From contig JAFUYM010000026.1 of assembly GCA_017470525.1 (NCBI GenBank), forward strand, positions 33,419-97,418: a DNA stretch of 64,000 bases, in the 5' to 3' direction. Within the stretch, counting starts at the first letter, position 1. Each line of letters opens with the position of its first letter. The notes beneath the pieces are model-generated. The model searched no databases. It was not told the DNA's origin and saw only the letters and a list, made by a program, of their open reading frames with translations. The position numbers and the translations under genes are program-made. This document shows, in pieces, positions 16,555-58,270 of the stretch. Origin of the DNA: Bacteroidaceae bacterium. GTDB taxonomy: Bacteria; Bacteroidota; Bacteroidia; Bacteroidales; Bacteroidaceae.

Positions 16555-16570
16555 TAAAATCGATTACATT

Positions 16571-17662: not shown

Positions 17663-17683
17663 CATCTAATGTATATAAAAAAT

Positions 17684-17719
17684 GGGGGCGCACCACAATG
17701 ATGTGCCCCCGTTTTCTTT
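17684..17719. terminator. Intrinsic terminator hairpin between convergent genes
   Basis: GGGGGCGCA (17684-17692) pairs with TGTGCCCCC (17702-17710). The hairpin is preceded by an A-run and followed by GTTTTCTTT. Confidence 0.6.
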
Positions 17720-17880: not shown

Positions 17881-17892
17881 CTTTGCTACAGA

Positions 17893-27390: not shown

Positions 27391-27469
27391 CTAAAGGGGA
27401 GAGAGTCTTACCCTTCCAAGGGAGAGAGTCTTACCCTTTAAGGGGTGAGAGTCACTCCCCTTTAGGGGT
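27391..27469 (-). repeat. REP-like tandem hairpin array immediately after the last gene of the pilus operon (probable terminator)
   Basis: It has three ~22-nt units (GGAGAGAGTCTTACCCTT x2, then GGTGAGAGTCACTCCCCTT) and abuts the TAA stop at 27470-27472. It is the reverse complement of the array at 58166-58270. Confidence 0.85.
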
Positions 27470-28255
27470 TTAAAGTGTACCGTTTTGCAGGTATTGCAAT
27501 AAAGTCTGTAGATTGGCATCTTTCAGCACCACTCGCTTCTGCTTGTCGAGCAAATAGAGAGTAGGGGTGAAAGGCACATAATACTCTGTTTTCAAATCTT
27601 CTTTCTTCATGCGCACCACGTTCAACAGAGGGTTCTGCATGATGAGTGGCTCCTGCTTCATTTGTGCCTCCAAGCGTTGGCAACGTCGGCAATCAGGGTC
27701 GTAAAAAATGAGCAACGTCTGTTCTCCCTCCATGCGATGAAGGTGTTTCCGCTTTCCATTGAGGTCAGTCACCATGATGTCAGTCGCCACCATGCCCACT
27801 TGATTCTTTGCCAATTGCTGCAAGAGCCATTCCCGCTGAGGAGTCTGTGGCAACGCGCGAAGCAGATGGGCATACACCACATCATTATGTAAGGGAGATT
27901 CGGGGTCAACCAAATAGCGTTCCATCTGTTCCGTAAAGAACGAAACACTCCCTGGATGCTTTGCCAAAGAGTCGGCAAAAACCATCGCCCCACGTGCAGC
28001 AGAAAGCGAGTCAGCATGCTGCATGAGATTCATGAAATCCACCATGCCCTGCTCTCCCACCTGACGATTCGTCGCCGTGCTGTCAGCAAACACATAATGC
28101 TGCCAAAAATGCTCCAGCATGTAACGGAGCCGCGCCTCAGGCTCCTCCATCTCATCGGGAATGTCAGGATAGGGAAAGGCTGCCTCCTGTGCCCTCACAG
28201 AGAGGACACAGCAAAGCAGCCCAATCATCATATAAATCTTACGTGCCATGTGCAT
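27470..28255 (-). CDS. Secreted DUF5106-like / thioredoxin-fold protein with CxxC motif
   Basis: 261 aa. The signal peptide ends VRA|QEA. The C-terminal TlpA-like fold has LLIFYDPDCRRCQ (CxxC encoded at 27680-27691). Its ATG overlaps the stop of the 2601-aa gene (TAATG). Confidence 0.7.
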   Translation of the reverse strand: MHMARKIYMMIGLLCCVLSVRAQEAAFPYPDIPDEMEEPEARLRYMLEHFWQHYVFADSTATNRQVGEQGMVDFMNLMQHADSLSAARGAMVFADSLAKHPGSVSFFTEQMERYLVDPESPLHNDVVYAHLLRALPQTPQREWLLQQLAKNQVGMVATDIMVTDLNGKRKHLHRMEGEQTLLIFYDPDCRRCQRLEAQMKQEPLIMQNPLLNVVRMKKEDLKTEYYVPFTPTLYLLDKQKRVVLKDANLQTLLQYLQNGTL

Positions 28256-31200
28256 TATGGCTCAGAAGTTGAGTCGGTGTTGGAGTCAGAATCAGAATTT
28301 GTCCCCGATGTGGTAGTAGCCTCCTTGCCGATGGTCACATGCGTATCGCCCGTCACCTCTGCATTGTTGCCGCCACCAAACACATTACCCCTAATGTCAG
28401 CACCTTCCACCGTATGGGTGCGTTCTGTATCTGTAGTATCTTCTTCCACTTCCACCTCTTCCTCTTCATTCTCACCATTCACTTTCTTTTTCACAGTCTT
28501 CTTGGCAGGTGTCATAAACACTTCACTCTCTGTCGTGCCAATGTTCACATACGTATCGCCATCCACTTTTGCCGCATTGCCACCACCAAACACTTTGTTG
28601 ATGGCACCAATCTTGTCAGCATCATGAGCAGGCAGAAAGACTGGGACTTTTTGGTTTTGAATGACGCGATTGCCGTCATCGTCATATTCAAAATCACCAT
28701 CCTCTGTGCGGACATATTCCTTAAATTCAATCTCCTTATGACCGATATGGTTTGCGATTGTAGTGCCATCTGTGTATGTATAGGAACCGTCTTTGTAATC
28801 ACCCTCACACACATTGATGTTCACATGTGTATCGCCCGTCACCACGGCAGTCTTACCATAACCACCGCCATACACCTCACCGATGCTGGTGAAAGAACGT
28901 ACATTGAGTGTAGGGCCATCTTTCCTTTCTGTCTTGGAACCATCTTTGAAAGGTGCCGTATAAGGAGCCTGATTGCCGCCACCATAAAGTTGTCCGATGA
29001 TGATAGGCTTACATCCCGTTTCCTCAATGTTCACCGTGATGGTGCCTTTGATGTCTCCTTTTACATTGTTGCCACCAAACACACGGTCGAACGTGCCGTT
29101 AGTGATGGTCAGATTCACATCGCCCTCTATTTGGGCATCCTCTGCACCACCGTATGCTACAGTCAAGCCCGGAATGCATGCCATCTCCAATCTTGATTCA
29201 GCATCCATCGACGCACTCTTGCCGCCTCCGTAAGCCTCATCCACATCGAAATCACAGCCACTCTCATCCTCCAGCATCGTCACAGCAGAAATACGCACAT
29301 TACCCTTCGTATTGGAACCGCCGTACACACGGTGTATCTTACCACCACGAATCTTCACGCGAGCCTCACCTGTGCCGTAAGTATATTTGTTGATAAATTC
29401 ATCTGTTTGTCTATCTGCCTTAGTAGGATACGTATCTTCTACGTCAAAGTAGTTCTTGAAACCTACATTAGCACCAGGGTTATCTGAACCATCAGGCAGT
29501 TTGTCCTTACCATTGCCACCGCCAAACACCTCGTCTATCTCATACGTTTCATCAATCTCCACCTGTGTGGCAGGAGTGGAAGCCGCATTGCCACCGCCAT
29601 ACACCTGTTGGATGCTGGTATATCCACAACCCTCGATGATGACTCTTGTGGAACCGTTTTCCAAATCTGTCGGTTCGTATGCCGCCATGTTGCCACCACC
29701 ATAAACGGCATGTAGGTCGTAGCGTCCAGGCACCTTAGCATTCGTCACAGCCGCTTTCCCTTCAGAAGCCGCAGCATTGGCAATTTGAGAAGCATCCTTG
29801 TTTTGTGTCTTATGAATATGTACGGTGACAGTACCCAGTGGCGATGTGTTCATGTTGTTACAACCGAAAATGTCGCCCAGCACCACACAACCCTTGTCTG
29901 TGTCCGCCACATTTTCGTTCAGGTCAACAGTGACGTTGCGAGAAATGCCCAAAGAGTTAGCCGTGTGATAGGTGTCATCGGTCGTGCCCATACCACCACC
30001 GAAGACGTTCTGATGGATGGTGCCACCCTTCAGAGCCACCGTGATGTTGCCGTGGTTTTCAGGATTGTCGGTGTGCAACTTACCATAGTTTGCTGCATTA
30101 GGATCAGTGAAGTAAGTACCCACCGAGGCAAGTTGCCCGCCGCCATAGACGGAACCTTTAATAGAACCATCCAAAATGGTAAGATTAATATTGCCACTCA
30201 CGACTCCAGCAGTCAGTGCGGTAGAGGAACCTTTACCACCACCAAACACATTCCCGTCGTAGCCAGAAGCACCGTCACAACCGATAACAGGCGCTGACTT
30301 TCCTTCACCTGTTTCTTTACTGATGGTCGTCATGGCATTATCCAATACGTGACCGTCCTCACCACTACCATAAACAGAGCCGTAGATGATGCCGCCAGTA
30401 ATCTCAATATCCACGCTTCCCACGTTGGTCATCGTATTGAAATAGGTACGCGGGTCGCCCTTTCCTGCACCAAAGAGGTTGCCAGTCATTGGATTTTCCT
30501 TAATCTGTTCCAAGGTACGCGGTACGCCGATTGTACCGCCAGACATTTTCACCGTACTTTTACCCTTAACGTCGGTATATTCATTAGCACCATAGACATT
30601 GGTCAAGATATGACCACCCTTGATTTCTACCAAGGTATTGCCCTCCACCCATCCTGCCGAACGAACCCATCCGTAGCCTGTACCATCACTCTTCTCGTAG
30701 GGGTAGTAGCCAGAGCCACCGCCGAACACACAGCCAATCCATGTTTTACCGTCAGAAGGATGCGAAGTGCTACCAGGGGAGAAGTCTTCGGGAATGTTAT
30801 CCTTGTATTTTCCTGTTACATAATATTTATCGTAGTATGGGTCGAAAGTTTCATATACCCATTCGGGGGACTCTGTAGTGCCAATATTCCTTCCGTAAGG
30901 GAAGTGAGAGCACTCGACCAGAGCATTCGAATCGGTGACAGGCGTTGTGAGAGGATTGATGAACTGTTCATCTTCATAGCGCTTGGGTTTGAGCACATCA
31001 TTCACGGTTTCTGTCTGGTTTTTTCCCACACCAATCTGACAGTCATCCTGAATCGTTACGTGCGTATTGCCAAGCACACGTCCGAACTCACCACCACCTA
31101 TGATGGACTCCAGAATGAAGGCATCACCGCCGACGGTCACATCGGTTTCATTAACGTAAGCAGTGAAGTGCGTATCTGGGTTATCCTCTGGGTCCTCGAT

Positions 31201-34200
31201 TAAACCTCTTCCTCCACCCCATATCCAGCCTTCCCTGACAGGACCACTTTCTCTTGTCATACCCTCTGTTGCCACCTCTATGGGACCAATCTGACCGCCA
31301 GTAACAACAATCGTACATTTGCCAGTGTTTTCTGCACATGACACAGGCTTGCCAATACAGTCGTCATGAGGAGTATGACCAAAGATTGTTACATCTGTTG
31401 CTGCCGTTGACCTTGTAAATGTTCCTACCGAACCGGAAAGTCCACCACCAAAGATACCGTTAAAGACATAACCGTCCTCCATCGCCACATAGGTATTGCC
31501 CATCACATCAGCCTCGTTGCCGCCACCATAGACACTGCCATTGATGGTACCAGCCAAGATAATGATGGTGTCATTGTCAAGCGACTTACTTTCATTACCA
31601 CCACCAAACACGTTTTCTTCTATTGTGCCACCGTCGATGGTGAGTTTAATGGCACCTGTCACGTTGCCCAAGGATGCCATCGTCTCTGTAGTTAATCCTG
31701 TCGAGAGGGTTTTGTTGGTAGGGTTATTGTCACCGAGTGTACCACCTGCCTGCCAGTTCCATGTTTCAGGGTCAACGGTTCCAAATTCGGTGAACAGAGC
31801 CATATCTGTCTTGTATATAGAGTATGTGGGTTGTGTGTCGGTATAGACTTTGATTTCGTTCGACTCAGCCTTGAAGCCACCACCGAAGGCACTGCCTTCT
31901 ACTGTACAGCCTGTTAATGTGGAGGTGACCGTACCATTCACCTTACCTTGACAACCAGCACCGTAGAAGTCTTTCAAAATGGTACAGCCATCCAGCACAT
32001 TAGTGACATTGCCAGTTGTGGCTAACGAGAACTGTGCATAGCCAGTATAGAAACGAGCCACAGCCTGGTAACCGTTGGAGTGGTAGATGTATTCCATTTT
32101 ATAGCAGGTGCCGATGCCATAGTTTTCCTTATTCGTCAACCGTTTGTAGTTGGTGAATGCTAATGGATAAATAATATCGTTATTAGTTGCAACAGTGTTA
32201 TTTTGGTCTTCACGGTTGTATGTAATAGACGTTCCTCCGAAGCCTGCTCCATAGTATTCACCAAAGGTGGTATTGATGGCATGGGTAGTGACGGTCTTGC
32301 CGTCGTTCATATCACCGAATTCGGGACCACCACAATAGAAATCGACCTTGCTGTTGTTGATGGTGATATCAATATCTCCCGTAATGGGGGCTGCAGCCGA
32401 GGTGCCGCCGCCAAAGAAGCGGCCGATAAGTGCATGGTCTATCTTGGCAGTCATATTGACACTTCCATCACTGGTTGACGTCTGTTTGGGCTTTTCCATA
32501 TATGCACCAAGGAATTTGCCAATCTTACCCCCTGCACACCAGAAACGGATGTCGCTACCCACTGCTGGACAATTGTATGTGTTATAGCCCGTCATAAAAC
32601 ATTCCTTCACCTCTCCGCCTACGACATTTATTGGAACGATGGTGGTGGTTCGTGCCGCATTGTCTCCAGTACCACTTCCCTGGTCAGAGTGTGCCCCAGG
32701 ATAAAGTTCCCCGACGTAAGCATTTCCACCTATTTTCAGATAACTGAGTTTGCTGCAATTAGTTCCCTTTGAACGGACAATCTGAACGAAATAACCACTA
32801 TTGATAACAACAGGATTGTTGCCTTTGCCATTATTGGTAGTAGTGTAATTACCAGAATCTATCTCCCACTGACTGGAGTAGAATACGCAGGTCTCAGTGA
32901 GTTCGAACCACCCACGGGTTTTCCACAGCGGTACACTGGGGTAGCCGCGACTACTTGTTAAGTGTGCTGCCATACCGACGGGCACGACAGGCACGAAATC
33001 GAAACGCACGGGAGGGATGCCTGGACGGCTGCTGCCATTGTGACTATAGAAACCATAGTCAGGTTCTTGGTTGTTGTCGGCATCAATGCTCATCAGCGTG
33101 AATGCCTTGGTATAAGCATCTATTGGACCATCGTTGAAGTGATAGTTGCCAACGAGCACGATGGCTTGGTCGTGGGGGGATGTAGTTGCGGTCATGGGAG
33201 AATCAGCACTCGTCAGCAGGGTCTTCAGATTGGTATAGACGGTCTGACCATGATAGGAACTTGGAACGGAGCCACCCAACTGTACAGGATTGGTGTATTG
33301 ATTTGAAGCGTACTGCAAGCCTATCTCATAACTGGGGTCGCTCAGATAATAAGCCTTAGCGAAGTTTGCCTCGATATTAATGGCAGTCACTCCATTGGGT
33401 ACAATATAATTGCCGCCTTGGGCAAAGATGTAACCAGTTGTGCTGTAAAGGTCTTTGGATGTGCAGTCACGGTCGGCAAAGTTATAATTGGTCAGTGAGC
33501 CTGCTGTACCACCACTGACAGAGATAATTTTCCACCCTGTGCATATCTTCGTATAGTCGGTGTTCACCTCAAACTCATTGGCGAAGGGCAGCACCACTTT
33601 GCCGTAAGTATAGTCATAATGCAAGGTGTCCATATCGGTAATGGGTAACTTTGCGCTGTATTTGCGACCGTTGATGGTGATGTTGGCTGTCAAGTAGCCA
33701 TTTGTACCACGGTCAGTGAGCACTTTACCCCCATAATCCCTTGTAGCAGTCGTAGTTGTGACCGTCGGTAAGTTGTCCTTCAGGTCAACAGTAATGCGCT
33801 TGGTATTGCTCTCCCATTCCTCTATCACAGGGTAGGGAGGAGTATCATCGCCTTGCTTCAGTACCCAGTGTCCAATTTCATCAATTTGAGTCGTTGTAAT
33901 TGCACTCACATAGTCGGTGCTCTCTTTGGCGGTGTTGGGTGCAAACAGAAAATAGGCAGCCAACTCGCGGTGGGTGTTCAATATATGACGATAGAAGGGG
34001 AAGCGCGTCAGATGCCATTCGTCAGAGATGGCAAGTTGGTCATTATAGTTACCTGAAGTGTAAGATAGGTCTTGAAGAACGATTTCTTCTTTTCCTTTCT
34101 CCTCATTAAAAACTCTTTTACTGTATAGCCAATAGTTATATTCCGTGAAGTTCTGTACGTTGCTGGTGTGGTTGCCTGTATAGACGGGTGAAATGGTCTT

Positions 34201-36060: not shown

Positions 36061-36169
36061 CTTCTTTATCTTTAGCCCTTGTGGGCAATTTCTTTTCTTT
36101 TATACCTTTTTTCCTTCTTAGTACTTCCTCAGAAATGCTGAGTTAGCAATGCACTCGAACCGCAGGAGG

Positions 36170-39100
36170 TTATTTCACCATCAGTTTATGCTTGTTGACA
36201 ATATAGACACCTCCCATCGGAACTTGTGTCTCAATGGTTTCGCCTGGCTGGATCGTGAAGGAGGCTATGGTCAAACCACCCGTGTTGACAATGGTCACGT
36301 TGGTGGCTGTGCGGAGTGATGAGGTGACGCCGATGAGGTGCTTCTTGGTGTAGAAGGTCAGGCTGCCACTGGCTTCGCCTTGGGTCGGGTCATTGTCATC
36401 GAAGTCGAATGAGGTGTCGTCGCTCTTATCGAATATGATATGCTCTACCATTTGTCGAGGTTTTGCCGAGGCTGTACCCGCAATGAAGTATGGGCGGAAC
36501 GGAACGGCTGCTATAGCAGTTTCAGTCTTGTCGAAACTGCTGCCCTCTGTGTCGAGCAGATAGCCTTCCACCTCTTTGCTCAAATAGTTTGGCACGAAGG
36601 TGTAGCCATCCTTTGCCGCTTTTTTCATTTCGTCGTCGCTGACATGGATTGTCTCACCCTCTGCAGAAACGAAGGTGATGGTTTGTTTATCCAGTTTTTC
36701 AGGATTGCTCTCGGCTGTGGTCAAGGCTCTGAAGTTGCCGCTCAAGTCGAACTCATAGTAAGTCTGACCAGGGAATCCGATGAGGTAAGGTGTGTCGGCA
36801 GCCAGCAATGGGTAGCCATCATATTGGCGTGACGGCTGCTGATAGTAAGTTTGGTAGGTGTCACCGTTGAGGTCTTTCTGGGCGTTCTTGCTGTAGTAGT
36901 AGTCCCACAGGAAGGTGTTGGTCACCGTCTTGGGGGTGGTTTGTTGAGCGGGGTAATCGAACAGGGCAGTAAAGACATTGTTGTCGCTAATTTTCTTGCC
37001 CTTGTACTCCCGCAGCCAGTACTCGTGTCCCTTCAAACTGCCATCATAGAAGTGGGTCAACTCGCCCTTGTTTTGGGTGGTGACAAGTTCGGCGGTGAAT
37101 GGAATGCTGATTGCCTCCCAGCCCTTCGTCAGGTCAACGAAATTGTCTGGTGTGCGCTGATACCACATACGGTAGTCGCCCATGCGGTATTCGATAGGCG
37201 CATTGAAGTCTTCCTTATCAACGAGCATGTGGTCGTTGGGGGCAACATAGCCATCGTCTGCCAATTGCACTCTATGACCATGTATGTTGTCTTTATAGGT
37301 GTCCCATGGTGCCACTGTGCGATAGGTCGCACGGCGAGTCTCCACGTATGCCTCATCGTACAGATAAGTGCCTACCACATTGTCTGTCTGTGTGTCGGCT
37401 TTGGTATAGACGAGCAGGTTTTTGGTCAGGTCAATGTTCTTGATGCTACAGATACCATTATCATCAAGCAGAGGTTGATAGAAAAGTTGCCCATTGAATC
37501 CTTGTCGATAGGTCGCATCGCCATATCCGGTGAAGTCAATCGCTGTCATGTTGGGGTAGGCTGTATGTGCTTTGTCTTTCGATTGAGCAGCCAAGAGCAC
37601 ATCTGGATTGAAGTGTACTGCCCCCATCTGCTTGCTTTGGAAATAAGCAGGTGCGCGATAGACACGGTTGTTACTTGTGATGTGTGTCGGCAACTCATCG
37701 TGTGACGACGATTCATCGTCTGGCTTCGTTGAATCTTGTGACGGCGTTGAGTAGTAGCCGTATGTAAGCCTCTGTCCGAAGAAGAGATAGTCATCAGGCC
37801 AAATCGGGGCATAGACAGGGGTGACAGCCGCACCTTCCGTTTGAGTTCTCATGCGGATGTCGCTGCTTTCAGGAAGTTTTCCGTTAGCATAGATGAAGTC
37901 CACGTTGGCATAGCGTCTCTCCACATAACCCAAGTCGCCGTATTGAGCATTGTCGCTGGTCAGAACAGGATAATAAATCGGACTCATTTCCTCCGACAAG
38001 GTGCCATCAGCGTTGGTGGTGAGGTAGTTGTATTCTGTATCTCCTGTCTGTTGGATGCCATCGTAGTAGCGGCGTTTCAGATAGAAGCCATTGAGGTTGT
38101 ATGCCACTTCGCCATTGTAGAAGGCTTGTGGTGTCTTTGGGATAGGTATGCCATAGTTGCTGCTGTGGTTGGTGTACTTGTTGGCAGCATCCTTTTCTTC
38201 AGCATAATAGCAGTTCACGATACGGTAAGGACGTGTATCGTTGAGGTTTGTAGGTTCGCCAAAGACGGGCTTGGTCGTCTTGGGTTCTGTGCTGGTGGTG
38301 CTTATCCAACAGTTTTCCACATAACCGCTACCTTTCTCTGCAATACCGGCTCCTGTGAATGTACCAGTGACTCCAAGGTTATAGACATCACTGCAGAGAG
38401 AGCCAAACAACGAGTGGTCAAGACCACTAATGGTATATCCGTCGCCATGGAAGGTACCAGCAAAGCATTGGGAATCATTGCCAATGGATGTCCATGAGCC
38501 AGGATGGTCAATGTCGGTGCGGAGGAAGAAATCAAGGTTCTCACCACCTTTCACATTTTCATTCAGCAAGGCGTGACCTTCGGTGGCTCCGCTGTTTGCC
38601 ACAGAAGTTTGGCAACTGAGGTCGAAGAAGTTCTTTAGTATGTCGAGACCATTCTTGTCGTCGTCACTATAATCGTTGATGTAGATTTTGCAGTGGCGCG
38701 TCAATTTGGCAGGGTCATAATCTACATACATGTGGTGCTCTGTGTCTGCCATCACGTTTGCCATGTCGTGGTAGTTTGCCACGCTGAGCGGCACGGAGTT
38801 GGAGTAGGTCTTGCCCAGATAAGTCTTGGCATAATAAGCCACGTAACTCCGTTGGTTCTGGTACCAATAGACTTGAGTCTGGTTGGGTGTGAAAGGTTTT
38901 CCGTTGCGGTGGTTTTCGGCATCGGTCTTATTGTCATAGATTTCCCATCCACCACCGATGATTTCGAAGGCACCTGGAATGATGGGTCGGGGTTCCTTTG
39001 TTCCCACGGTGTTTCCTGGCAGTACGGTAGATGGAGGTGTCAGTGTGCCGACAGATGGCACACCGCTCTCGAACTGTACGTGTATGTTGATGACGTGCAG

Positions 39101-48067: not shown

Positions 48068-48103
48068 GTTTCAGTCTTTAATTTTCAACTTTCACTTTTC
48101 AAC

Positions 48104-49312
48104 TTATTGATTCGTCACGGTAAATGTCGGATTGTCAAGGTCTGGTTCCGACAACACATAAAGATAGGTTGGGGTGACCGTTATCTGAACAGTATATTTC
48201 TTACCGGGCTGTAAAATTCCATTAGTTCCTTGGATCGTGAAGATATTCTCTGCTGCGCAGTCTTCTCGAATAAGATTACCTTTCCTGTCATATATATTGT
48301 AGATACTCTTCATAAGAAACCTATTGACAGAAGGAGGAGCATAATAGCCTTGTAAATTCTGATACATCGTGGTCAACTTCGGTAACTGGTCATCATCGGT
48401 AGAAGTGAGTTCCGAATTGTCGTATAGAGTGATTGGCTTTTCGTTTCCATTCGATTTGGAGGTAAAAGTGACAGCATTTGTCCCGATGATAGGACTCACT
48501 CCTTGGGTGTTTGCAGTGATATTGACTGTGCCTGTCATCGTTTCAATTTTCTCATTATTGTCTGACAAAGCCCAGATTTTCAGAGATTTTAGTTTGATGG
48601 AACGTAAGGTGGCGTAGGTTTCATCCACCTTCATTTGGAGGTCAATGCCAGCACAAATGTGGTCTAATAGCAGGCAGACATAGTCATTATATGCGGTGGA
48701 GAATTGATAACTGAATGCTCCTGGCACGATATTGACATTTTCGAAGGATATATTGTCGGTGGCTTGTTTAACACCAGAGATGACGCATACATCGCTCAGG
48801 GTGACGGCATTCATATCATTGATGGTCAGACATGCCCCCTTGCTATAATTGGTTTCTCCTCTCAGCAGGGAGATGTCCACGTCAGATGATGTGTCATCGG
48901 CTGAAATAGGCATAAAACCATAAATGTAGTAGGGGTGACTTTCGTCCAGAATCGTGACGTTGGTGCTCCATTGGTAATTGTTAAAATACAATCGACGGGT
49001 GGCAACGTCTTGTCGCGCAGGATTTTCGGTGGAAGGAGTGAAGAACACCACCATGTTGCTCTGGGCATCGATGGCATTGGGATGAAGTGTTTGATAATCC
49101 TCGTAGCCACTGGGTAGAGAACGAGTGGAGAGGGATGATTCCACATCCTTCAATTGTTGTGACCCAAGCATGAAATGCACCTGATGGTCTGATGTCTGAA
49201 TGTCTTGTGATGTATCATCGGAACAACCACAACAAAAGAGTATCGCTACCATTAGGAGCGTTACGCTTATCTTGTTATATGTGGTCTTCTTCTTGAGCAT
49301 GATAATTTTCAT
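48104..49312 (-). CDS. Pilin-like lipoprotein (fimbrial accessory subunit candidate, Mfa4 position)
   Basis: The start was moved to the Met at 49312 (MKIIMLKKKTTYNKISVTLLMVAILFCCGC|SDD lipobox), giving 402 aa. The call rests on its position in the Mfa-like operon. Sequence similarity to pilins was not verified. Confidence 0.45.
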   Translation of the reverse strand: MKIIMLKKKTTYNKISVTLLMVAILFCCGCSDDTSQDIQTSDHQVHFMLGSQQLKDVESSLSTRSLPSGYEDYQTLHPNAIDAQSNMVVFFTPSTENPARQDVATRRLYFNNYQWSTNVTILDESHPYYIYGFMPISADDTSSDVDISLLRGETNYSKGACLTINDMNAVTLSDVCVISGVKQATDNISFENVNIVPGAFSYQFSTAYNDYVCLLLDHICAGIDLQMKVDETYATLRSIKLKSLKIWALSDNNEKIETMTGTVNITANTQGVSPIIGTNAVTFTSKSNGNEKPITLYDNSELTSTDDDQLPKLTTMYQNLQGYYAPPSVNRFLMKSIYNIYDRKGNLIREDCAAENIFTIQGTNGILQPGKKYTVQITVTPTYLYVLSEPDLDNPTFTVTNQ

Positions 49313-49353
49313 TTTTCTCTCTCCTTCTCTCCTAAACAGGAGAATCGAAGGGG

Positions 49354-51138
49354 TCACCAATTATAAGTGGAATGGCTGGTTGTTGATTCCGCCTTCCATT
49401 CCTGAATGCCTGCCTGTACAGTGTTGAAAATGTGCAGATTATCGCTATCCAAACTGGGTAAGGCATTGTAGGCATGGGTCAAGTTGTTGATATCGAGATG
49501 AACTTCTGTGATGTAATCTTTTGTAAATACGCGTTTCGTAAAATCCTCTGCGGGTGTGGCAGGTACATTGATGCTGGCAACCAGATAGAACTTCGTTCCT
49601 TTGTAGATGATGCCGTTTTCACTTACAAAATCCTTACTGTTGTTCAGAAATTCCAACACCAGTTTCACAGGCTTCTTTTCTTGCGTTTGCAGTGCCAAGG
49701 TGAAAAGAGGGGAGGAATATTGGGAGACAACGGCACCTAAGCAGACACTTTCATCTTGGAGCGTTGGGTCATAGATGATGTATTCATCATATTGGTCGCC
49801 TATTTTTTGAGGCTCAAAATTGTAACCTTGTCGCGTTTGTCCACCAATAAGAATGCCTGTCAGGGGGAAGGTTCCTGCATCCAGTGTCACGTCTTGCAGT
49901 GTCAGGTCTTCATTTGCATCTTTTAATGTAGAACTTGTTGCTTTTATATAGGTCTTCAAACACCCAACAGCATAATCCAATGGTTCCTTGATGGCTACAG
50001 ACAGGGTGTTTGTAGTCACTTCGGCATTATCATTCTCATAATAGTGCAATACGCCACTCTCGCCAGACCATGTTGAGAGATTGTAATGTTCTTTCTCACT
50101 GCTTGCAGAGGTCTTGATGGAACTATGCTTGAAATAGTATAGTTCAGCAGGATAGACGAAACGGTTAAGGCTATTAATGTCGTTGAATGCGGTTTGATTC
50201 AATATGGGTTCGAATTGAGAGGTTGTTTTATTCCATTGAATGACGGCTGCACCATCGGGAAGATGGGTTGGATAGTCATCCATTGTTGTTCCCAGATTGG
50301 TGACCTCATGGTTGTTCGTATCGAAAGTCACACCTGTTGTGATGGCAGACAAGATGGTTCTTTGAAGGGTGGCGCCTTCTGAACCAGTACCATAATTCAG
50401 TTTTGCAATGTCTTGATACAATTTGCTGACCATTGCCTTGATGTTACGGCTGGAACCTGCAAAACTGGAGTATTCGCCAGTGTTGTTGAGATTGACGAAT
50501 TTTTTGAATAAGTCTCTTAATTCTGATAATGTCTCATTTTCATCAGTTACTTGATTCCAATGTCCTGCTGTTGCAATATTCGTCAGATATGTTGCAATGG
50601 CTTGTGCCTTATTGTCAGGCACATAGATGGGTTCTGGGTCAAAATAAGAGTTCAGGGGATTTTCTTCGTCATAATGAGCATTAAAAAAGCCATTCTTGAA
50701 TTTGGCAACTTCGTTGTTCTCTGTGAAAGGAATGGCCCTTCCATAGCACAGGAAAGAAGATGTTCCAATAGAGAGTTCCACTTGATGAGTGCTAAGATAA
50801 TTGTAGGTATCTCCTTGCCTGGTCAGATTGCCAATGTAATCAGGTGAAACGGGTTCTTCAGATGCCATAGGATATAACCTTAATTCCTGCACTCCTCGGA
50901 ACTTCCCAGACGTTTGGGTTACATCAAATTGATTGACATCTGAAGATGCTGGCATTCTCGTGTCTGCACCATTCGGTTCATTCGCTGTTTTCTGATGTGC
51001 AGACACATTTAACACCACATCGACAGTCACGATACCTTCTTTCTTGATAGGCTCATCACTGTCACTTGTTGAACAACTTTGTAATCCGCAAGTTGTTAAC
51101 AGGGTCAATACAATTATTATATATATTCTACTTTTCAA
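49354..51138 (-). CDS. Mfa1-family-like fimbrial lipoprotein (accessory/tip candidate, Mfa3 position)
   Basis: 594 aa with a TTG start codon and lipobox LQSC|S. It has a DTRM motif ~60 aa in, then FRGVQELRLYP. The C-terminal FTKDYITEV...LPSLD is related to the two upstream paralogues. Confidence 0.55.
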   Translation of the reverse strand: MKSRIYIIIVLTLLTTCGLQSCSTSDSDEPIKKEGIVTVDVVLNVSAHQKTANEPNGADTRMPASSDVNQFDVTQTSGKFRGVQELRLYPMASEEPVSPDYIGNLTRQGDTYNYLSTHQVELSIGTSSFLCYGRAIPFTENNEVAKFKNGFFNAHYDEENPLNSYFDPEPIYVPDNKAQAIATYLTNIATAGHWNQVTDENETLSELRDLFKKFVNLNNTGEYSSFAGSSRNIKAMVSKLYQDIAKLNYGTGSEGATLQRTILSAITTGVTFDTNNHEVTNLGTTMDDYPTHLPDGAAVIQWNKTTSQFEPILNQTAFNDINSLNRFVYPAELYYFKHSSIKTSASSEKEHYNLSTWSGESGVLHYYENDNAEVTTNTLSVAIKEPLDYAVGCLKTYIKATSSTLKDANEDLTLQDVTLDAGTFPLTGILIGGQTRQGYNFEPQKIGDQYDEYIIYDPTLQDESVCLGAVVSQYSSPLFTLALQTQEKKPVKLVLEFLNNSKDFVSENGIIYKGTKFYLVASINVPATPAEDFTKRVFTKDYITEVHLDINNLTHAYNALPSLDSDNLHIFNTVQAGIQEWKAESTTSHSTYNW

Positions 51139-51217
51139 CTCTCAACTTTTATAATGTATAATTCATAATTGCCATGCGGCTTGTACATATCGTGTCAGCC
51201 CAATTGTCGATTATCAA

Positions 51218-52330: not shown

Positions 52331-52332
52331 GA

Positions 52333-54084
52333 TTAGAGGTCCTTCGTGAATGTGATACCTGCTTGCCATTCGAGGTTGACAGAGAAGGCAACCTCCAATT
52401 GTGGAGTCTTCAAATCGGGAATCACATTGTAAGCAGCACCAAGTCCATTGCTGTTGTTGGCTCCTAATGTTCCCTTGCTAATCGTGAACAAAGCCTTCGT
52501 GATATAATCCTGTTCAAAGACTTTCTTCCGGTTATTTGGATTGGTGATTTCGTCTGTTTTCTCCAGATTAAGTACGCCAACAAGATAGAATTTGCCGCCA
52601 GCAGGAACGATACCGTCTTTGCCTGCAAAGTCTTGACCCGTATTGTTGGTCATTTCCACGGCGACATTCACTTGTTTCATGTCTTCAGCAGTTTCCAACA
52701 CCAAAGTGTGATTAGTTCCAGTGGGACCATCTACCGTTGCAGCGAAATTGCCGTTAATCACTTTATCGTAGATAGTGTATTCTTTAGATGTTGCGATGGG
52801 TGCGAACTGGAAGTTTACATTCTTTTGGTGACCGACAAGGACTGCAGAGATTGGGAAACCGTCACTGTTGACCGTCACGGCTTCACCCTTCGCATCGTAA
52901 AGCGTCTCACCGTCCGTTTGTACTTGCAAATCCAGGCGTCCTACGGCATATTGTATTTGGTTCTGCAAAGCGATAGAGCGAGTGTTACCTGTTACCTTCT
53001 GTCCCCAGTTGTAGAGATTGGCTTCTAAAATTGCCTGCCAAGTGAGACCATTGAATTGGTCGGATACTTTGTCGTTATTAGATGTACCGATTGCAGTGTT
53101 GGCGCGATAGCAAAGGGCAGCAGGGTAAGTGTAACTGTTGAGTGGAGATACGTACATGCCTTCGCGACCTCCCGTCACAATCGTGGGCTCTGTCCCCGAC
53201 CAGTCGATGGAGGCTGCACCATCTGGCAGGTTCAGGTTGGCAGGATAACCTGTCACCTTTTCGTTCACCAAGGTCACCTTATTGTCGCTACTGATGGTTG
53301 CATAAGAAATACCACCCTGTTCGATGATAGCCGCTCTTACAGCAGCAACTCCGGTTGCATCGTCTGTAATGGCACGTGCCTTGTCCCACAAGTGCTGAGT
53401 ACTTATTTCGATGCTGGCAGAAGAACCTGCCGTTGGCTGGAAAGCCACGAGATAAGCATGAAGGGTATGGTTGGTGACATTGTTTGCTACCGCGCGGATG
53501 CCCTTTACATAGTTCAATAGGGCTTCGGCACGTTCATTGACCGCACCCGAAGGATAGATGGGTTCCAAAGCGAAAGTATAGTTGGCGGCAGATTGGACAT
53601 ACTCCGTAGGAGCAATGATGGAGCCATTGTCGAATTTGTTCTCACCCGTCTTGATGGCTTGACCATATAGCATAAAGGCACCTGTGCCCACAGGAATGGC
53701 AAGGTCGTTATACACTTTGGCATTTTGCTTGCCTCCGTTATCGAAGGCTGTGAGGTTTGTCAATGTGTAAACCTTGTCTTGAAGGGGGCGGACATCAGGA
53801 TTGATGCTGGGCACAAATGTCTCGTATGGAATCAGTTTGATGTCTTGAATGCCACGGAAAACAGGAGTGACCTGTCCCTGCACCGTTGCAGTAGTCATAC
53901 GAGTATCGGTGGTGGTATGTGCATTCTCTGATAGTGAGATAGCCAGTTGTGTCTTTACCGTGTTCTCCACAGGGTCATAGTTGGGATTGTTAATGACCTC
54001 GTCCTCCGACGAACACGCTATGAATGTTGTTGTGCCTGCAAGTGCTATCGCGCTCGTCAAGGCAAATTCATAAAACTTTTTCAT
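52333..54084 (-). CDS. Mfa1-family fimbrial major-subunit-like lipoprotein (paralogue 2)
   Basis: 583 aa with lipobox FIAC|SSEDE and DTRMTTATVQGQVTPVFRGIQDIKLIPY. The C-terminus (EQDYITKALF...IPDLKTPQLEVAFSVNLEWQAG) is homologous to paralogue 1. Confidence 0.65.
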   Translation of the reverse strand: MKKFYEFALTSAIALAGTTTFIACSSEDEVINNPNYDPVENTVKTQLAISLSENAHTTTDTRMTTATVQGQVTPVFRGIQDIKLIPYETFVPSINPDVRPLQDKVYTLTNLTAFDNGGKQNAKVYNDLAIPVGTGAFMLYGQAIKTGENKFDNGSIIAPTEYVQSAANYTFALEPIYPSGAVNERAEALLNYVKGIRAVANNVTNHTLHAYLVAFQPTAGSSASIEISTQHLWDKARAITDDATGVAAVRAAIIEQGGISYATISSDNKVTLVNEKVTGYPANLNLPDGAASIDWSGTEPTIVTGGREGMYVSPLNSYTYPAALCYRANTAIGTSNNDKVSDQFNGLTWQAILEANLYNWGQKVTGNTRSIALQNQIQYAVGRLDLQVQTDGETLYDAKGEAVTVNSDGFPISAVLVGHQKNVNFQFAPIATSKEYTIYDKVINGNFAATVDGPTGTNHTLVLETAEDMKQVNVAVEMTNNTGQDFAGKDGIVPAGGKFYLVGVLNLEKTDEITNPNNRKKVFEQDYITKALFTISKGTLGANNSNGLGAAYNVIPDLKTPQLEVAFSVNLEWQAGITFTKDL

Positions 54085-54125
54085 ATATAATATAGTTTTT
54101 GAGATTTATACTTTTTATTGATTAT

Positions 54126-56000
54126 TTACTGGATGATAATCGTCTGCTTAATTCCTTGTTGCCAAGTCAAATCCACAGAAAGTCCCATTTCCAATTCTGG
54201 CGACCGAAGGTCCGGCAGTGTATTGTAGGCTTTCTCAAAATTTTTAATCTGGAAATTGGCTGTTGTGACATAGTCTTGTTTGAAGGCTTGTTTGATATTG
54301 TTCGTATTAGTGGTATTAGCGGAAGTATCTGATGGGTCTAATTCACCCACTAAATAGAACTTGGTACCAGGATAGATGATACAATTGTCCTTTCCTTTCA
54401 AAGCCTTCCCCGTGTTGTTCTTGAATTCCAAAGCAATCTTCACCTTGGCATTCTCTTCATTCCCCGTAGTACTTTCTGGAGTTTCCAACACTAAGGTGTG
54501 ATTGATTGTCGTGTTGGTGGGGTTGGCTGTAGTCAGATAAATCTCGCCATTATTATTTATGTTGCGGTCATAGAGGGTATAAAGTTTTGTTGTGTTATTG
54601 CGGATAGGTTGAAATTGATAATCAACAGGCGACTGGTTTCCGACAAGAACGCCCGTCAGTTGGAAGTTCGTGCCAATAGGCTGTACGGTTTGACCAGAAA
54701 AGTCCGGAAGGCTCCAATCTGTTGCTTGTATTGTAACGTCAAGACGTCCTACTGCATATTGTACAGGATCCACCATAATGATGGAGTGGGTGTTGCCTTT
54801 CACCTTGGTATTATCTGATTCATTATAACTGTTGACTATATTCGTCCATTCAGCATCATCCTTATATTCGCTGGCTTTTGATGTGGAAGACACTTTGATG
54901 CCGCTCAAAGCACGATAGTACAATGCAGCAGGGTAAGCATAGTCGGTGATGCCGGCGTAATTGATGTTTGTATTTTGTTTTGTCAAATCATACGAGAATT
55001 GATTATTTGAAAAAGACACGTAGGCTGCACCGTCTGGGAGTCCCATGTCAGCGGGGAAGTCACCCATTTCTGCAAATGTCAGTATGCCGTTCTCCACTTT
55101 TGTCACGAATTTACTGTTTTCTGCGTATGTAGTCTCTGTAATGGCCTTCTTAATCGCCGTAGATAATGCTTCCGGGCGATTGAGAAGGGTGGTATAGAGT
55201 TGTTGTACAGCCCCTTTGATACTTGCCCACGAACCAGCGGTGATGCTGGTGAATTGGTTGTAAAGGATTCCCAGAATGAACGCATCTGTGTCTTTCCAAG
55301 TTGTGCCGTCTGTTGTTTTTGCGGTGGCAATGGCTGTCAAGTAGTTGGCGATGTAAGTGCCATTGTTGGTTACTGTAGTAGCACTTGAGATGGGTTGTGG
55401 CGAAAAAGTAATGGCACCAAGAGTATTATCGTCACTACTTCCCAATGATGGAACAAGCGTTCCTTCAGCAAAATTGTTTTCGGTGCTTTGGCGAAGGGCT
55501 TGACCATAGAACATAAAGGTCTCTGCGCCAATCGGAATCTCTAAGTTCTGATAAAGGTGAGACTTGCTTGTATTGTATAGAGCACTATTATTATATGTGT
55601 TGTTTGTAAGTACATCCCCATCAATGATATTGGCAGAAGTTCCACTTGCTCCCACCTTTCCCACAGTACCACCTGCAAATGAGATGACTGAAGGAATGGC
55701 AATAGCTCCAGCAGATGTTCCTGTAAGAGTCGTTTCTGCCTCCTTAAAAGCATACAACTTCATATCTTGTATGCCACGAAAAACCGGAGTGGTTTGTCCC
55801 TGCACCGTTGCGGTGGTCATACGGGTTGTTCCTGCTATGTTATTGGGGAACGAAATGGTGAACTCAGCCTTCACGACACCCAGGGAACCTTCGGGGTTTA
55901 GTTCTTCGTCTTCGCTGCTGGAACAAGCAGTGAAGAGCATGGCGATGAACAATGCGGCAAAGTAGGGCACTGTCTTCACATTCATTAAACTTGTTTTCAT
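54126..56000 (-). CDS. Mfa1-family fimbrial major-subunit-like lipoprotein (paralogue 1)
   Basis: 624 aa with lipobox LFTAC|SSSEDE, GTTRMTTATVQGQTTPVFRGIQDMKLYAF and the C-terminal KQDYVTTANF...LPDLRSPELEMGLSVDLTWQQG. Confidence 0.65.
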   Translation of the reverse strand: MKTSLMNVKTVPYFAALFIAMLFTACSSSEDEELNPEGSLGVVKAEFTISFPNNIAGTTRMTTATVQGQTTPVFRGIQDMKLYAFKEAETTLTGTSAGAIAIPSVISFAGGTVGKVGASGTSANIIDGDVLTNNTYNNSALYNTSKSHLYQNLEIPIGAETFMFYGQALRQSTENNFAEGTLVPSLGSSDDNTLGAITFSPQPISSATTVTNNGTYIANYLTAIATAKTTDGTTWKDTDAFILGILYNQFTSITAGSWASIKGAVQQLYTTLLNRPEALSTAIKKAITETTYAENSKFVTKVENGILTFAEMGDFPADMGLPDGAAYVSFSNNQFSYDLTKQNTNINYAGITDYAYPAALYYRALSGIKVSSTSKASEYKDDAEWTNIVNSYNESDNTKVKGNTHSIIMVDPVQYAVGRLDVTIQATDWSLPDFSGQTVQPIGTNFQLTGVLVGNQSPVDYQFQPIRNNTTKLYTLYDRNINNNGEIYLTTANPTNTTINHTLVLETPESTTGNEENAKVKIALEFKNNTGKALKGKDNCIIYPGTKFYLVGELDPSDTSANTTNTNNIKQAFKQDYVTTANFQIKNFEKAYNTLPDLRSPELEMGLSVDLTWQQGIKQTIIIQ

Positions 56001-56041
56001 TTTCTTATTGTTTTATGTGTTAATATATTGCTCTTGTTGGT

Positions 56042-57580
56042 TTATTTTTCCAGTTCTCGGAGGTTCCGCTGTGCATCGGCATTTCCGTTGGCTGCAGCAC
56101 GGCGGAAGCATTGCATGGCTTGCTCTTTCTGACCAGTCATGTAGAGTGCCACACCGAGCGCGTTTTGGGCGCGTTCGTCGGTGCTCACGGTCTTGAGCAA
56201 GGTGAGGGCTTCCTGATAGTGTTCCTGCCCGATGAGTTCGGAGGCTTGATTGATGATTTCTGCCTGACGGTCGGGCACACGGTCGAAGTAGATGCGCAGA
56301 TAGCCGGAGTTGCGCTGTTGTGGCAACAGATTCTCAAAGATGTAGCGGAAGGTGTTGCCGCCATTGAGTTGGCGCAAACGCTGTTCGCGGCGGGTCAAAT
56401 CTGGCTCGCTGTCGATGAGGGCGATTGCCTCACGCAATGCTGCCGCATGAGCAGGAGACACTTCGGTGTCGTGGATGGCGTCGTTGATTTGGTCGCGCAG
56501 TTCTGTCCAGGCTTCGCCGCCATTGGCGAGTTCGTAGATGGAGTCAGGGGTGCTGACATGTTGCTGGATGTAGCGTTTCAGTGCCTCTGCACGGTTGGCT
56601 GCCAATGTCTCATTGCCCTTCACGGCACCTTCGATGCTTGCCAAACCTATGATTTGAATGAGGCGCACATTGCTGGCGGTGTCAGCCACAATCTGTTGGG
56701 TAATGTCGATGATGCGGTCGAGCGTGGCTGCATTGTCGCGATAGTCGTGTTGCAGGTCGGAACTGCCCAAGGGGAAGTGTACAAACAGGGCACCTTTCTC
56801 CTTGCGCAAGATGCGGGTTTGGTCGTAAGGAATGTAATCCTTGTATTCAGCCAACACGGGGTTGTCTGCCAGCAGGCGGTCGCTGACCGTAGCAGGTCGG
56901 ACGCGCGAAACTGCCAGCACGGGCTCTTCGGGTGTTGGCGGTTCGACGGGTTCCACAATGGGCGGAGGAACAATGGGCTGCTCCTTCTTCTTATGGTCAA
57001 GCACCAGGTTCACAGCCAGTTTCGGCACGAGGAACGGTTTGTCGTCGCGCCCCAAGTAGGCGCCGCAGTGCGGGCAGTCATACTTCTTTGCCCACGCGTA
57101 GCCAATGCCCACACCCAGTTCTGCCTCGAGGCGGAACCAACTGTTGAGTCGCCACGTCCTGCCATAGAAGGCTCCGATGGCGGCGAGGTCGCCTTGCAGT
57201 CGATGGTCGCGAACGGATTTATACATGCCCAGAGGGAATTTCACGCCCCCCACGTTGTAATGGCTATAGATGAGGTTCAAGCCCCAGTATGTGCGGTGGA
57301 AAACACTGTCGTTCCAGTGGCGCAGTTCGGGTGCCAGCAGCAGGTGTCTCCACTTCTTCTCCTTGTTGTCGTCGGTGGGCCAAGGGCGATAGCCGGCATT
57401 CATGCCCCATGTCCAGTGAGGCGAAATGCGCATGTCGAACCCCAGATTGGGAGTGCCCGAAAGGTCATAGCACAGGTTATTGCGGACAGCAATGTGTTGC
57501 TGTCCTAACGCCTTCTGACCCGCTCCCAATAACAGGAGCAACAAGGCAAATTTCCCAATGATTCCCAATCGTTTATACAA
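56042..57580 (-). CDS. DUF3575-like outer-membrane domain + OmpA-like/TPR C-terminal region protein (first gene of pilus operon)
   Basis: 512 aa with a TTG start. The signal peptide ends ALG|QQH. The N-terminus (NNLCYDLSGTPNLGFDMRISPHWTWGMNAGYRPW...YWGLNLIYSHYNVGG) looks DUF3575-like. The C-terminal IIGLASIEGAVKGNETLAANRAEALKRYI is an OmpA-like motif, followed by a TPR-like end. Confidence 0.6.
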   Translation of the reverse strand: MYKRLGIIGKFALLLLLLGAGQKALGQQHIAVRNNLCYDLSGTPNLGFDMRISPHWTWGMNAGYRPWPTDDNKEKKWRHLLLAPELRHWNDSVFHRTYWGLNLIYSHYNVGGVKFPLGMYKSVRDHRLQGDLAAIGAFYGRTWRLNSWFRLEAELGVGIGYAWAKKYDCPHCGAYLGRDDKPFLVPKLAVNLVLDHKKKEQPIVPPPIVEPVEPPTPEEPVLAVSRVRPATVSDRLLADNPVLAEYKDYIPYDQTRILRKEKGALFVHFPLGSSDLQHDYRDNAATLDRIIDITQQIVADTASNVRLIQIIGLASIEGAVKGNETLAANRAEALKRYIQQHVSTPDSIYELANGGEAWTELRDQINDAIHDTEVSPAHAAALREAIALIDSEPDLTRREQRLRQLNGGNTFRYIFENLLPQQRNSGYLRIYFDRVPDRQAEIINQASELIGQEHYQEALTLLKTVSTDERAQNALGVALYMTGQKEQAMQCFRRAAANGNADAQRNLRELEK

Positions 57581-57634
57581 AATAAAATTCTCCTTTTTTA
57601 TTTAAAATTCTATTTTTCTCATTAGAAAATTTTA

Positions 57635-57642
57635 CAAATATA
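57635..57642 (-). promoter_or_regulatory. -7 promoter box TATATTTG for the pilus operon
   Basis: The reverse complement of CAAATATA matches TAnnTTTG and lies 54 nt upstream of the TTG start at 57580. An A8 run (T8 on the plus strand, 57645-57652) lies immediately upstream, in the -33/-7 spacer. Confidence 0.45.
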
Positions 57643-58139: not shown

Positions 58140-58165
58140 AGTGATGAAGAATACTCTTTTCCACA

Positions 58166-58270
58166 CCCCCTGAAGGGGAGTGACTCTCACCCCTTAAAGG
58201 GTAAGACTCTCTCCCTTCAAAGGGTAAGACTCTCTCCCTTCAAAGGGTAAGACTCTCTCCCCTTTAGGGG
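58166..58270 (+). repeat. REP-like tandem hairpin array (probable terminator), inverted copy of 27391-27469
   Basis: CCCCTGAAGGGGAGTGACTCTCACCCCTTAAAGGGTAAGACTCTCTCCCTTCAAAGGGTAAGACTCTCTCCCTTCAAAGGGTAAGACTCTCTCCCCTTTAGGGG. The units are ~22-23 nt, each able to form CCCTT-loop-AAGGG-centred stems. Confidence 0.85.

Follow-up and report, generated by a model that had tools for sequence, protein, structure and literature searches.

What occupies the tip position of a type V pilus when the gene in that position encodes a protein of 3965 amino acids (aa), and does such a protein belong to the pilus at all? This question is raised by a nine-gene locus of a Bacteroidaceae bacterium (assembly GCA_017470525.1, contig JAFUYM010000026.1, positions 33,419 to 97,418 of the forward strand; this stretch of 64,000 nucleotides (nt) is referred to here as the window), in which six pilus-type genes are followed by two giant genes and a thioredoxin-like gene. 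To our knowledge, type V pili are known almost entirely from Porphyromonas gingivalis and a few human-gut Bacteroides, and the locus bears on what the tips of such pili bind and on how tip proteins exported by a type IX secretion system (T9SS) join a pilus built of lipoproteins. We consider it probable that the locus is a chromosomal Mfa-type (type V) pilus operon of a rumen Prevotella-like Bacteroidales bacterium, in which a giant fibrous adhesin, composed of two or more proteins, fills the Mfa5/FimD slot.

A first-pass annotation of the window had described nine same-strand genes with gaps of -1 to 109 nt, and all nine open reading frames (ORFs) were found where it had placed them, on the minus strand at 27470-57580:

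57580-56042, minus strand: g1, 512 aa, TTG start
56000-54126, minus strand: g2, 624 aa
54084-52333, minus strand: g3, 583 aa
52321-51218, minus strand: g4, 367 aa from the likely Met (the longest ORF, from 52369, gives 383 aa)
51138-49354, minus strand: g5, 594 aa
49312-48104, minus strand: g6, 402 aa from the Met at 49312 (a longer start at 49360 gives 418 aa)
48067-36170, minus strand: giant 1, 3965 aa
36060-28255, minus strand: giant 2, 2601 aa
28255-27470, minus strand: g9, 261 aa

With the likeliest starts, the intergenic gaps from g1 to g9 measure 41, 41, 11-32, 79, 41, 36, 109 and -1 nt. The two giants together take up 19,704 nt, or 30.8% of the window, in agreement with the 19.7 kb and ~31% first estimated.

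The pilin-like genes

Direct searches of Pfam, NCBIfam and PDB sequences returned no match for g2-g6, and profile searches of PDB sequences with the pilin-like families gave none either, so that the pilus reading needed indirect evidence. Part of this evidence came from structure prediction. The AlphaFold model of g3, built with 29 homologues, reached a predicted local distance difference test score (pLDDT) of 80.5 and a predicted template modelling score (pTM) of 0.77, and when it was compared with the PDB using Foldseek, the top 27 matches were all Bacteroidales pilins of the FimA/Mfa superfamily (the best being 4gpv, E 6e-5, and Mfa1, 5nf3, E 9e-4, with Mfa4, 5dhm, and Mfa3, 5nf4, found as well). 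As modelled, g3 has the two-domain beta-sandwich fold of this superfamily. Its homologues form at least 1871 clusters at 90% identity, every one of them unannotated.

Two further genes are related to g3 in sequence. g2 is 38% identical to it and carries a lipobox Cys, a TTRM Arg site and a C-terminal LSVDLTWQQG motif; g5, whose lipobox reads LQSC, is 28% identical to g3 over its full length (E 1e-45) and is present in all relatives of the giant 1 type. Lipoboxes are visible in g2-g6, and in each of the three families aligned the lipobox Cys is invariant (stalk family, 29/29; g4 family, 19/19; g6 family, 19/19). For type V pili, an Arg at which the stalk and accessory subunits are cleaved, and which the uncleaved anchor lacks, has been described (PMC13655056), and the same pattern was seen here: Cys24 and Arg62 are invariant in all 29 stalk sequences, Arg62 lying in a low-confidence (disordered) loop after strand 42-50 of the g3 model, Cys30 and Arg64 are invariant in the g6 family, and no conserved Arg or Lys occurs within the first 110 residues of the g4 family. 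From the alignments, the designation of the invariant Arg in the stalk and accessory families as the predicted type V cleavage site, missing from the g4 anchor, is strongly supported.

Family-level scans gave names to the remaining genes. Six of the 19 g4 family members match the Pfam Mfa2 model (PF08842, best E 2.5e-7); the g4 of the window does not match it itself, and is 26-71% identical to the aligned members. In the g6 family, four of 19 members match Mfa_like_1 (PF13149, best E 1.4e-5), and the family as a whole aligns locally with the stalk pilins in a profile comparison (E 4e-6). Several relatives carry one additional cluster gene that matches P_gingi_FimA. The first-pass labels of Mfa1-like and Mfa2-like proteins thus failed in direct HMM (hidden Markov model) and PDB sequence searches, and were borne out by structure prediction and by the families.

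The C-termini point the same way. The stalk and g4 anchor families end in a common 25-residue motif (hhalign E 7e-5, 52% identity), which in the g3 model forms the terminal strand 574-582 after a disordered linker, and which appears donor-strand-like, as would be expected of donor strands. The g6 C-terminus lacks this motif, as do those of tip-type pilins.

Upstream of these genes, g1 encodes a signal peptide and a DUF3575 beta-barrel domain (Pfam, E 2e-44). Of the original label of DUF3575/OmpA-like protein, the first half is well founded; the OmpA match, at 23.3 bits, lies under the Pfam cut-off, as does a C-terminal TPR match. A DUF3575 gene stands immediately 5' of the pilin gene in most related loci for which upstream sequence was available. 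In one such locus (L005), a gene for an AraC/HTH_18 and TPR regulator (7351-9048) is found directly upstream of the DUF3575 gene, and its product is a candidate for regulating that cluster; upstream of the cluster in the window, no comparable AraC/HTH_18-type regulator was seen.

Based on the g3 fold, the paralogues, the family matches of g4 and g6, the FimA-like gene of the relatives, the Cys/Arg pattern, the C-terminal motif and the DUF3575 domain of g1, we conclude that the nine-gene locus is a type V (Mfa-type) pilus cluster in which two stalk paralogues are accompanied by an anchor and by one adaptor-like and one tip-like pilin. The individual assignments are strongly supported: g2 and g3 as stalk pilins, g4 as an Mfa2/FimB-like anchor, g5 as a candidate adaptor pilin and g6 as an accessory or tip-type fimbrillin-like lipoprotein, with all of g2-g6 being lipoproteins.

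The comparison with P. gingivalis mfa1-mfa5 is close in outline. There, too, a stalk pilin, an anchor and accessory pilins are followed by a large protein with a T9SS C-terminal domain (CTD), which takes the last structural slot; an Arg site is present in the pilins, which are lipoproteins, and stalk and anchor share a donor-like C-terminal motif (PMC13655056, PMC7835359). Unlike the mfa operon, the cluster described here opens with a DUF3575/OmpA-like gene, holds two stalk paralogues and a third Mfa1-like gene, and encodes pilins whose sequences escape the curated Mfa1 and FimA models. Further differences concern the slot itself, where the P. gingivalis protein, Mfa5, is a T9SS-dependent tip component of ~1.2 kaa with a vWA domain and a CTD (PMC7835359; PMC13655056). 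Here, the slot protein is three times larger (3965 aa) and has neither a vWA domain or MIDAS motif nor any known domain, and it is followed by a second protein of 2601 aa that lacks a CTD.

Giant 1 and the tip slot

The slot protein, giant 1, is laid out as follows:

Giant 1, whole protein: signal peptide; [YF]GGG-repeat solenoid, ~21-1950; ~1900 aa of non-repeat domains; T9SS type A CTD
36173..36382, minus strand: T9SS type A CTD of giant 1, ~residues 3896-3965

Giant 1 gave no Pfam (E <= 0.1), NCBIfam or PDB sequence match, and ten other full-length members of its family (44-54% identical) gave no Pfam match at E <= 0.01; hence, as the first reading of the sequence had suggested, the slot protein has no vWA domain. 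The [YF]GGG motifs are restricted to residues 30-1907. A search of 1.84 billion representatives with the central 1200 aa found only 235 clusters (50% identity); full-length members measure ~3400-4700 aa, and the 11 that were aligned in full are colinear. In the index queried with 1000-aa pieces of the giants, no match exceeded ~1750 aa, most giant matches there probably being fragments.

Both ends of giant 1 bear the marks of T9SS export. The family conserves a signal peptide whose cleavage context reads A|Q, and the mature protein starts with the rung A|Q..IxIGGNVYGGGN in every member. At the other end, 18 of 20 homologous tails match the type A sorting model TIGR04183 (best E 5e-8) and six of 20 match Pfam Por_Secre_tail (PF18962), and NCBI has given one homologue (P0233) the name 'T9SS type A sorting domain-containing protein'. 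The tail of the window protein scores 13.5 bits against TIGR04183 (E 0.055), under the 23-bit cut-off, so the CTD that had been noted at first sight is upheld by its family. Taking the Sec signal and the membership of a type A CTD family together, the prediction that giant 1 is a T9SS type A cargo is strongly supported.

Flavobacterium johnsoniae SprB is a repetitive T9SS-exported surface protein of several thousand residues, with a CTD of type B and a PorP/SprF-like partner. The giants resemble SprB in being repetitive and multi-thousand-residue proteins, and differ from it in that the CTD here is of type A (TIGR04183) and the gene neighbours are type V pilins. We rejected an SprB-like gliding adhesin given the type A CTD and the absence of a PorP/SprF model match among the cluster proteins in Pfam and NCBIfam.

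If giant 1 belongs to the pilus, its gene would be expected beside pilin genes elsewhere too. Among the relatives on long contigs, the order is DUF3575, pilin(s), anchor, Mfa1-like gene, (FimA-like gene), g6-like gene and then an ORF of 3689-4015 aa, with the g6-like gene always directly before giant 1. Seven loci (L001-L007) share the gene order in four different genomic neighbourhoods, and a giant 1 homologue follows the pilin genes in these seven and in 16 surveyed loci. An assembly artefact was rejected, as the same order recurs in many independent assemblies. Identity to the closest relative falls from 76% for g3, 70% for g4 and 66% for g1 to ~50% for giant 1, 40% for g5 and 34% for g6, a gradient that fits faster evolution of the distal parts.

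In a wider scan, for which each GTDB species was represented by a single genome, 80 loci were obtained; their carriers are Prevotella, Hallella, Paludibacteraceae and further Bacteroidales (rumen and gut), for the most part rumen metagenome-assembled genomes. Four of the carriers are cultured (Hallella mizrahii, H. absiana, Prevotella lacticifex JCM 34664 and Prevotella sp. AGR2160); they hold a sibling form of the cluster, which makes experiments feasible. Counting was limited to the 50 loci with at least 8 kb after the anchor gene, and in 47 of these a same-strand ORF of at least 1000 aa follows the anchor and accessory genes. Linkage between pilin genes and giant ORFs, whose absence the first-pass annotation had named in advance as speaking against its idea, is thus kept in 47/50 loci. 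Eleven of the 47 ORFs belong to the giant 1 family and come after two or three accessory genes; the other 36 form a second giant family, without Pfam matches and usually placed after a single gene of ~365 aa. The second family shows no BLAST similarity to giant 1 or giant 2, and its slot is the same, the four cultured strains included. Its N-terminus resembles 'TIRYV..G.YANDG.SW..AK.N.QDAI', and its members extend past 2000-2640 aa and reach the locus end (L014, L017, L026, L030, L041, L047 and ~30 others); a complete copy of 1942 aa in L034 gave no TIGR04183 match.

Two of the three exceptions (L023 and L029, of the same pilin clade) carry the FimD tip adhesin in the slot (NF052322, E 2e-70, above the cut-off), from which it follows that the giants occupy the position of a fimbrial tip adhesin. 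In this respect the pilin clade resembles the Fim-type pili of P. gingivalis and Bacteroides, L023 and L029 having FimD_tip_adhes at the position of the giants, and it is unlike them in that the slot ORF of the window and of 47/50 loci is at least 1000 aa long and has no similarity to FimD. The cluster defines a large unannotated clade of pili whose tip slot nearly always holds a protein of 1000 to >4000 aa, and its three slot fillers (FimD, the giant 1 family and the second giant family) are natural variants with which the coupling of T9SS cargo to a pilus can be studied. Searches of open-access papers and bioRxiv did not turn up any account of giant proteins in a type V pilus operon; a cluster of this type whose tip-adhesin slot is taken by giants seems, as had been supposed at the outset, to be undescribed so far.

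Based on gene position and linkage, we suggest that the pilus displays the giants or is co-assembled with them. The same data must be weighed against another explanation, in which the giants are neighbours of the pilus and not partners in it: the pilus would be an ordinary type V pilus, and giant 1 a free-standing T9SS adhesin, cleaved by the sortase and fixed to lipopolysaccharide (LPS), its gene co-located, and perhaps co-regulated, for the sake of adhesion. Such an arrangement would not readily account for a linkage that is position-specific and near-universal (47/50 loci) with short same-strand gaps, nor for the presence of FimD, a true fimbrial tip adhesin, in the slot of the exceptions; moreover, Mfa5 is a CTD protein and yet a pilus component (PMC7835359; PMC13655056). 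It does account for the type A CTD, LPS anchoring being the usual fate of such cargo, and for the lack of a detectable pilin-like domain in giant 1, and the occurrence of two apparently unrelated giant families in one slot fits a loose association as well as a strict coupling. We regard it as unlikely, though deserving of serious weight, and continue to favour the giants as a part of the pilus.

Giant 2, split solenoids and a proposed mechanism

Giant 2 differs from giant 1 in the order of its parts:

Giant 2, whole protein: Sec signal peptide; head; unknown region; [YF]GGG solenoid, ~1216-2580; end rung and Ser/Asp-rich tail

Its head combines a weak match of ricin type with two Fn3_assoc/CHB_HEX_C domains and, at residues 457-605, a Peptidase_M26_N-like segment (E 1.8e-10; IgA1 protease chains 6xja and 7jgj, E 9e-6). 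A GLUG/M26_N-like segment related to this module is also present in giant 1 (~3177-3300), so that the two giants have both this module and the [YF]GGG repeats in common. The module is GLUG-type and likewise found in the N-terminal region of streptococcal IgA1 protease/ZmpA; the giants share only this non-catalytic N-terminal module with those enzymes, and have no metalloprotease domain.

As the first pass had noted, giant 2 is without a sorting signal: neither it nor any of its homologues has a CTD, and all homologues end in the rung ...ADIRGNVYGGGNNAEVTGNTNVxIGK. With a signal peptide and no CTD, giant 2 is not a canonical T9SS cargo, and such CTD-less partners must somehow cross the outer membrane.

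The [YF]GGG motifs, which recur at a spacing of 25-26 residues, are confined in giant 2 to residues 1216-2561. The AlphaFold model of residues 1602-2601 (pLDDT 80, pTM 0.84) is all-beta with short regular strands, and its best Foldseek matches, all of them sub-threshold (E >= 0.15), are solenoid adhesins (Hap, the IgA1 protease autotransporter, RsaA, pertactin, EtpA and Ag43). The GLUG model had no match. The initial description of the giants as beta-helix proteins is backed by a confident model whose structural matches all fall short of significance; from the model, a beta-helix is likely. Like the beta-helical adhesins of Proteobacteria (Hap, pertactin, Ag43 and the TpsA protein EtpA), the giants are predicted to form a long all-beta solenoid. 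They differ in having no sequence relationship to them, no translocator or two-partner secretion (TPS) domain, a [YF]GGGN rung and a different secretion route.

The g9 gene, whose start overlaps the stop of giant 2 by 1 nt, encodes a periplasmic protein with a signal peptide, a DUF5106 domain (2e-27), a Thioredoxin_2 match (30.1 bits) and a CRRC motif. The thioredoxin fold and the CxxC motif claimed for it at the start are therefore present, and what did not hold is its conserved membership of the cluster: a thioredoxin-fold gene follows giant 2 in one of four relatives (L092, an AhpC-TSA gene overlapping the end of giant 2), and is missing from L090, L091 and L093. We rejected the thioredoxin as a core member on this ground; g9 is a weakly conserved local passenger of the cluster.

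Since the sub-threshold structural neighbours include two-partner-secretion and autotransporter adhesins (EtpA and Hap) and the solenoid is long, we also considered whether the giants deliver toxins, as a contact-dependent or polymorphic toxin filament (CdiA/TpsA-like or MAF-like) with the thioredoxin as an accessory or immunity-like protein. Scans for domains gave no match of toxin, immunity, TpsB or POTRA type. Conserved C-termini (the giant 1 CTD and the giant 2 rung) stand where a variable C-terminal toxin would be expected, no family member was seen to have such a toxin domain with a small immunity gene beside it, and the thioredoxin gene is not conserved. Given the lack of toxin and immunity genes and the conserved C-termini, a toxin-delivery filament was rejected as highly improbable.

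Genes of the giant 2 type lie downstream of giant 1 in all six relatives examined (L008, L009 and L090-L093), and in several of them the protein comes in pieces. L091, L092 and L093 have their giant 2 equivalent divided at one and the same rung within the solenoid (~residues 1505-1529): the upstream ORF ends in the rung ...GNVFGGGNxxxVGGSTTVxI, and the downstream ORF opens with a signal peptide of its own, after which the rung GGSVYGGGNxADV comes at once, as in giant 1. In L008 (7499-9838), L009 (13689-17663) and L092 (4127-6301), the lectin/Fn3_assoc head is a separate ORF, whose tail, judged by eye, is T9SS-CTD-like (...WYTLDGRxLxGKPxxxGLYIxNGKK..IK); the fused giant 2 of the window lacks such a tail. 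As far as sequence can tell, the giant system is one of two to four secreted modules, fused or split depending on the genome, and the solenoid family tolerates splitting at a fixed rung. Since the solenoid can be divided between polypeptides at such a rung, its ends are probably competent for intermolecular stacking, which in turn makes docking of the giant 2 C-terminus on the giant 1 N-terminus plausible.

These observations, read together with the P. gingivalis paradigm, allow us to infer a sequence of steps. The pilin lipoproteins would reach the surface, be cleaved at the conserved Arg and form a polymer through strand exchange set off by the protease, a process that would run until the uncleavable anchor g4 is added, with g1 (DUF3575/OmpA-like) serving as an outer-membrane base or assembly factor and the g9 thioredoxin gene being a local add-on. 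Giant 1, exported by the T9SS, would take the role of Mfa5/FimD at or near the pilus tip. Giant 2 would then join giant 1, probably via uncapped solenoid ends (the giant 2 C-terminal rung meeting mature giant 1 at its N-terminal rung), and its lectin-like head would be presented far from the cell, where it may bind plant or microbial glycans. The giants are candidate adhesins by which dominant rumen bacteria may attach to plant fibre or other microbes. A bolder and rather unlikely version has giant 1 and the CTD-less solenoid proteins (giant 2, or its split forms in relatives) stacked end to end via uncapped rungs into one fibre, carried through the T9SS by the giant 1 CTD and mounted on the tip of the type V pilus. 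If this were true, the fibre would be a hybrid appendage of two Bacteroidota-specific surface machineries, and would place the lectin-like head tens of nanometres past the pilus.

Several points weigh against a giant adhesin borne by a type V pilus. As regards coupling, a profile comparison of the g6 family with the giant 1 family revealed no pilin-like domain in giant 1, and the co-transcription set out below is a prediction from sequence. As regards export, cargo with a type A CTD normally ends up attached to anionic LPS, for which no pilus is needed, and giant 2 is without a known route across the outer membrane. None of the T9SS component genes scanned for occurs in the 64-kb window. Finally, the assignments themselves are indirect in part: the window copies of g4, g6 and the giant 1 CTD each fall below curated HMM thresholds and were assigned via homologues, nothing significant came from the Foldseek search with the model of the giant 2 solenoid, and the Foldseek E-values for g3 are modest (6e-5), with template modelling (TM) scores of 0.29/0.46 that are explained by a helical insertion in g3 (~residues 184-254).

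Would the locus make sense with no classical pilus at all? The pilin-like lipoproteins and the DUF3575 barrel might instead form a base, chaperone or anchor for a beta-solenoid fibre made of the giants and their split versions. The modularity of the solenoid proteins, which are split at fixed rungs with a signal peptide on each part, would suit this picture, as would the giant ORF found in 47/50 loci of the pilin clade and a stalk family so divergent that the Mfa1 and FimA HMMs miss it. It leaves without a purpose the invariant Arg after the first strand and the donor-like motif shared with the anchor, which are relevant only to strand-exchange polymerisation, and does not sit well with the retention of two or three stalk-type paralogues. 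We hold this explanation to be improbable, and retain the type V pilus with giants in its tip slot.

Other genes were also seen at the module boundaries of the relatives. Genes of AAA-ATPase_like/PDDEXK_9 type, or nuclease-like genes of DUF1016/YhcG type, lie between cluster genes or between the parts of a split giant 2, which suggests recurrent insertion of selfish elements at these boundaries:

L006, 11884-13506: gene(s) of one of these types
L092, 2264-3490: gene(s) of one of these types
L093, 6825-9978: gene(s) of one of these types
L091, 962-1990 and 8394-9689: genes of these types

In L009 (1-9900), phage-type genes (VapE, DNA polymerase A, PDDEXK_1 and a ssDNA-binding protein) abut a truncated giant 1 homologue of 1214 aa, an arrangement that resembles the insertion of a prophage in the giant gene.

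Transcription signals and surroundings

Three features at the edges of the cluster are of note:

57635..57642, minus strand: candidate operon promoter, a TATATTTG box that fits the Bacteroides -7 consensus TAnnTTTG
27394..27468, no strand assigned: 23-nt tandem repeat array of 3.3 copies, directly after the g9 stop
58164..58263, no strand assigned: 23-nt tandem repeat array of 4.3 copies, ~580 nt upstream of g1

A scan for sigma-70 promoters and terminators did no better than on shuffled sequence; sigma-70 being the wrong promoter model for Bacteroidota, we used a TAnnTTTG search instead. On the minus strand at 27000-58500, this search found only two intergenic matches, namely the TATATTTG box, ~55 nt upstream of the g1 start, and a second box at 27028-27021, before the SAM-II riboswitch and metK. 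The span of 27470-57642 first given for the cluster is right at its lower bound, whereas 57642 is the first base of the TATATTTG box and not a start codon. No TAnnTTTG box was found in any internal gap of the nine-gene cluster, nor any terminator-like hairpin in the junctions at 48068-48103 and 36061-36169. Short gaps, no internal box and no terminator-like site in either junction are consistent with one transcription unit, and the nine genes are predicted to be transcribed together from the TAnnTTTG box upstream of g1.

The cluster is flanked by housekeeping genes, with metK, a DUF4271 gene and hemD on one side and genes for an O-methyltransferase, an FtsX-type permease and a TPR protein on the other. 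The SAM-II riboswitch (long-loop type, 57.8 bits; 26951-27010, minus strand), with the box at 27028-27021 as its own, is directly upstream of the S-adenosylmethionine synthetase gene (25525-26967, minus strand).

The two 23-nt arrays (unit AAGGGTAAGACTCTCTCCC...) are mutually inverted and bracket the nine genes. The unit has five matches in the window against 0.02 expected, all at these two sites, and neither related copies in 93 related loci nor a dispersed family in JGI metagenomes were found. The arrays could be hairpin arrays that act as a terminator or are repetitive extragenic palindromic (REP)-like; alternatively, they could mark both ends of a segment that was inserted or can invert. 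A long, near-perfect inverted repeat with arms of ~35 nt (CGGAACAAATTATCGTTAATTATCGGCAATTATCG; ~27148-27182 and ~27262-27300, coordinates by eye) is also present between g9 and the metK promoter, and looks like a miniature inverted-repeat transposable element (MITE) or an operator. Outside the cluster, a stretch of low GC content at 14001-18000 (0.35-0.42, compared with ~0.48 elsewhere) may be horizontally acquired DNA.

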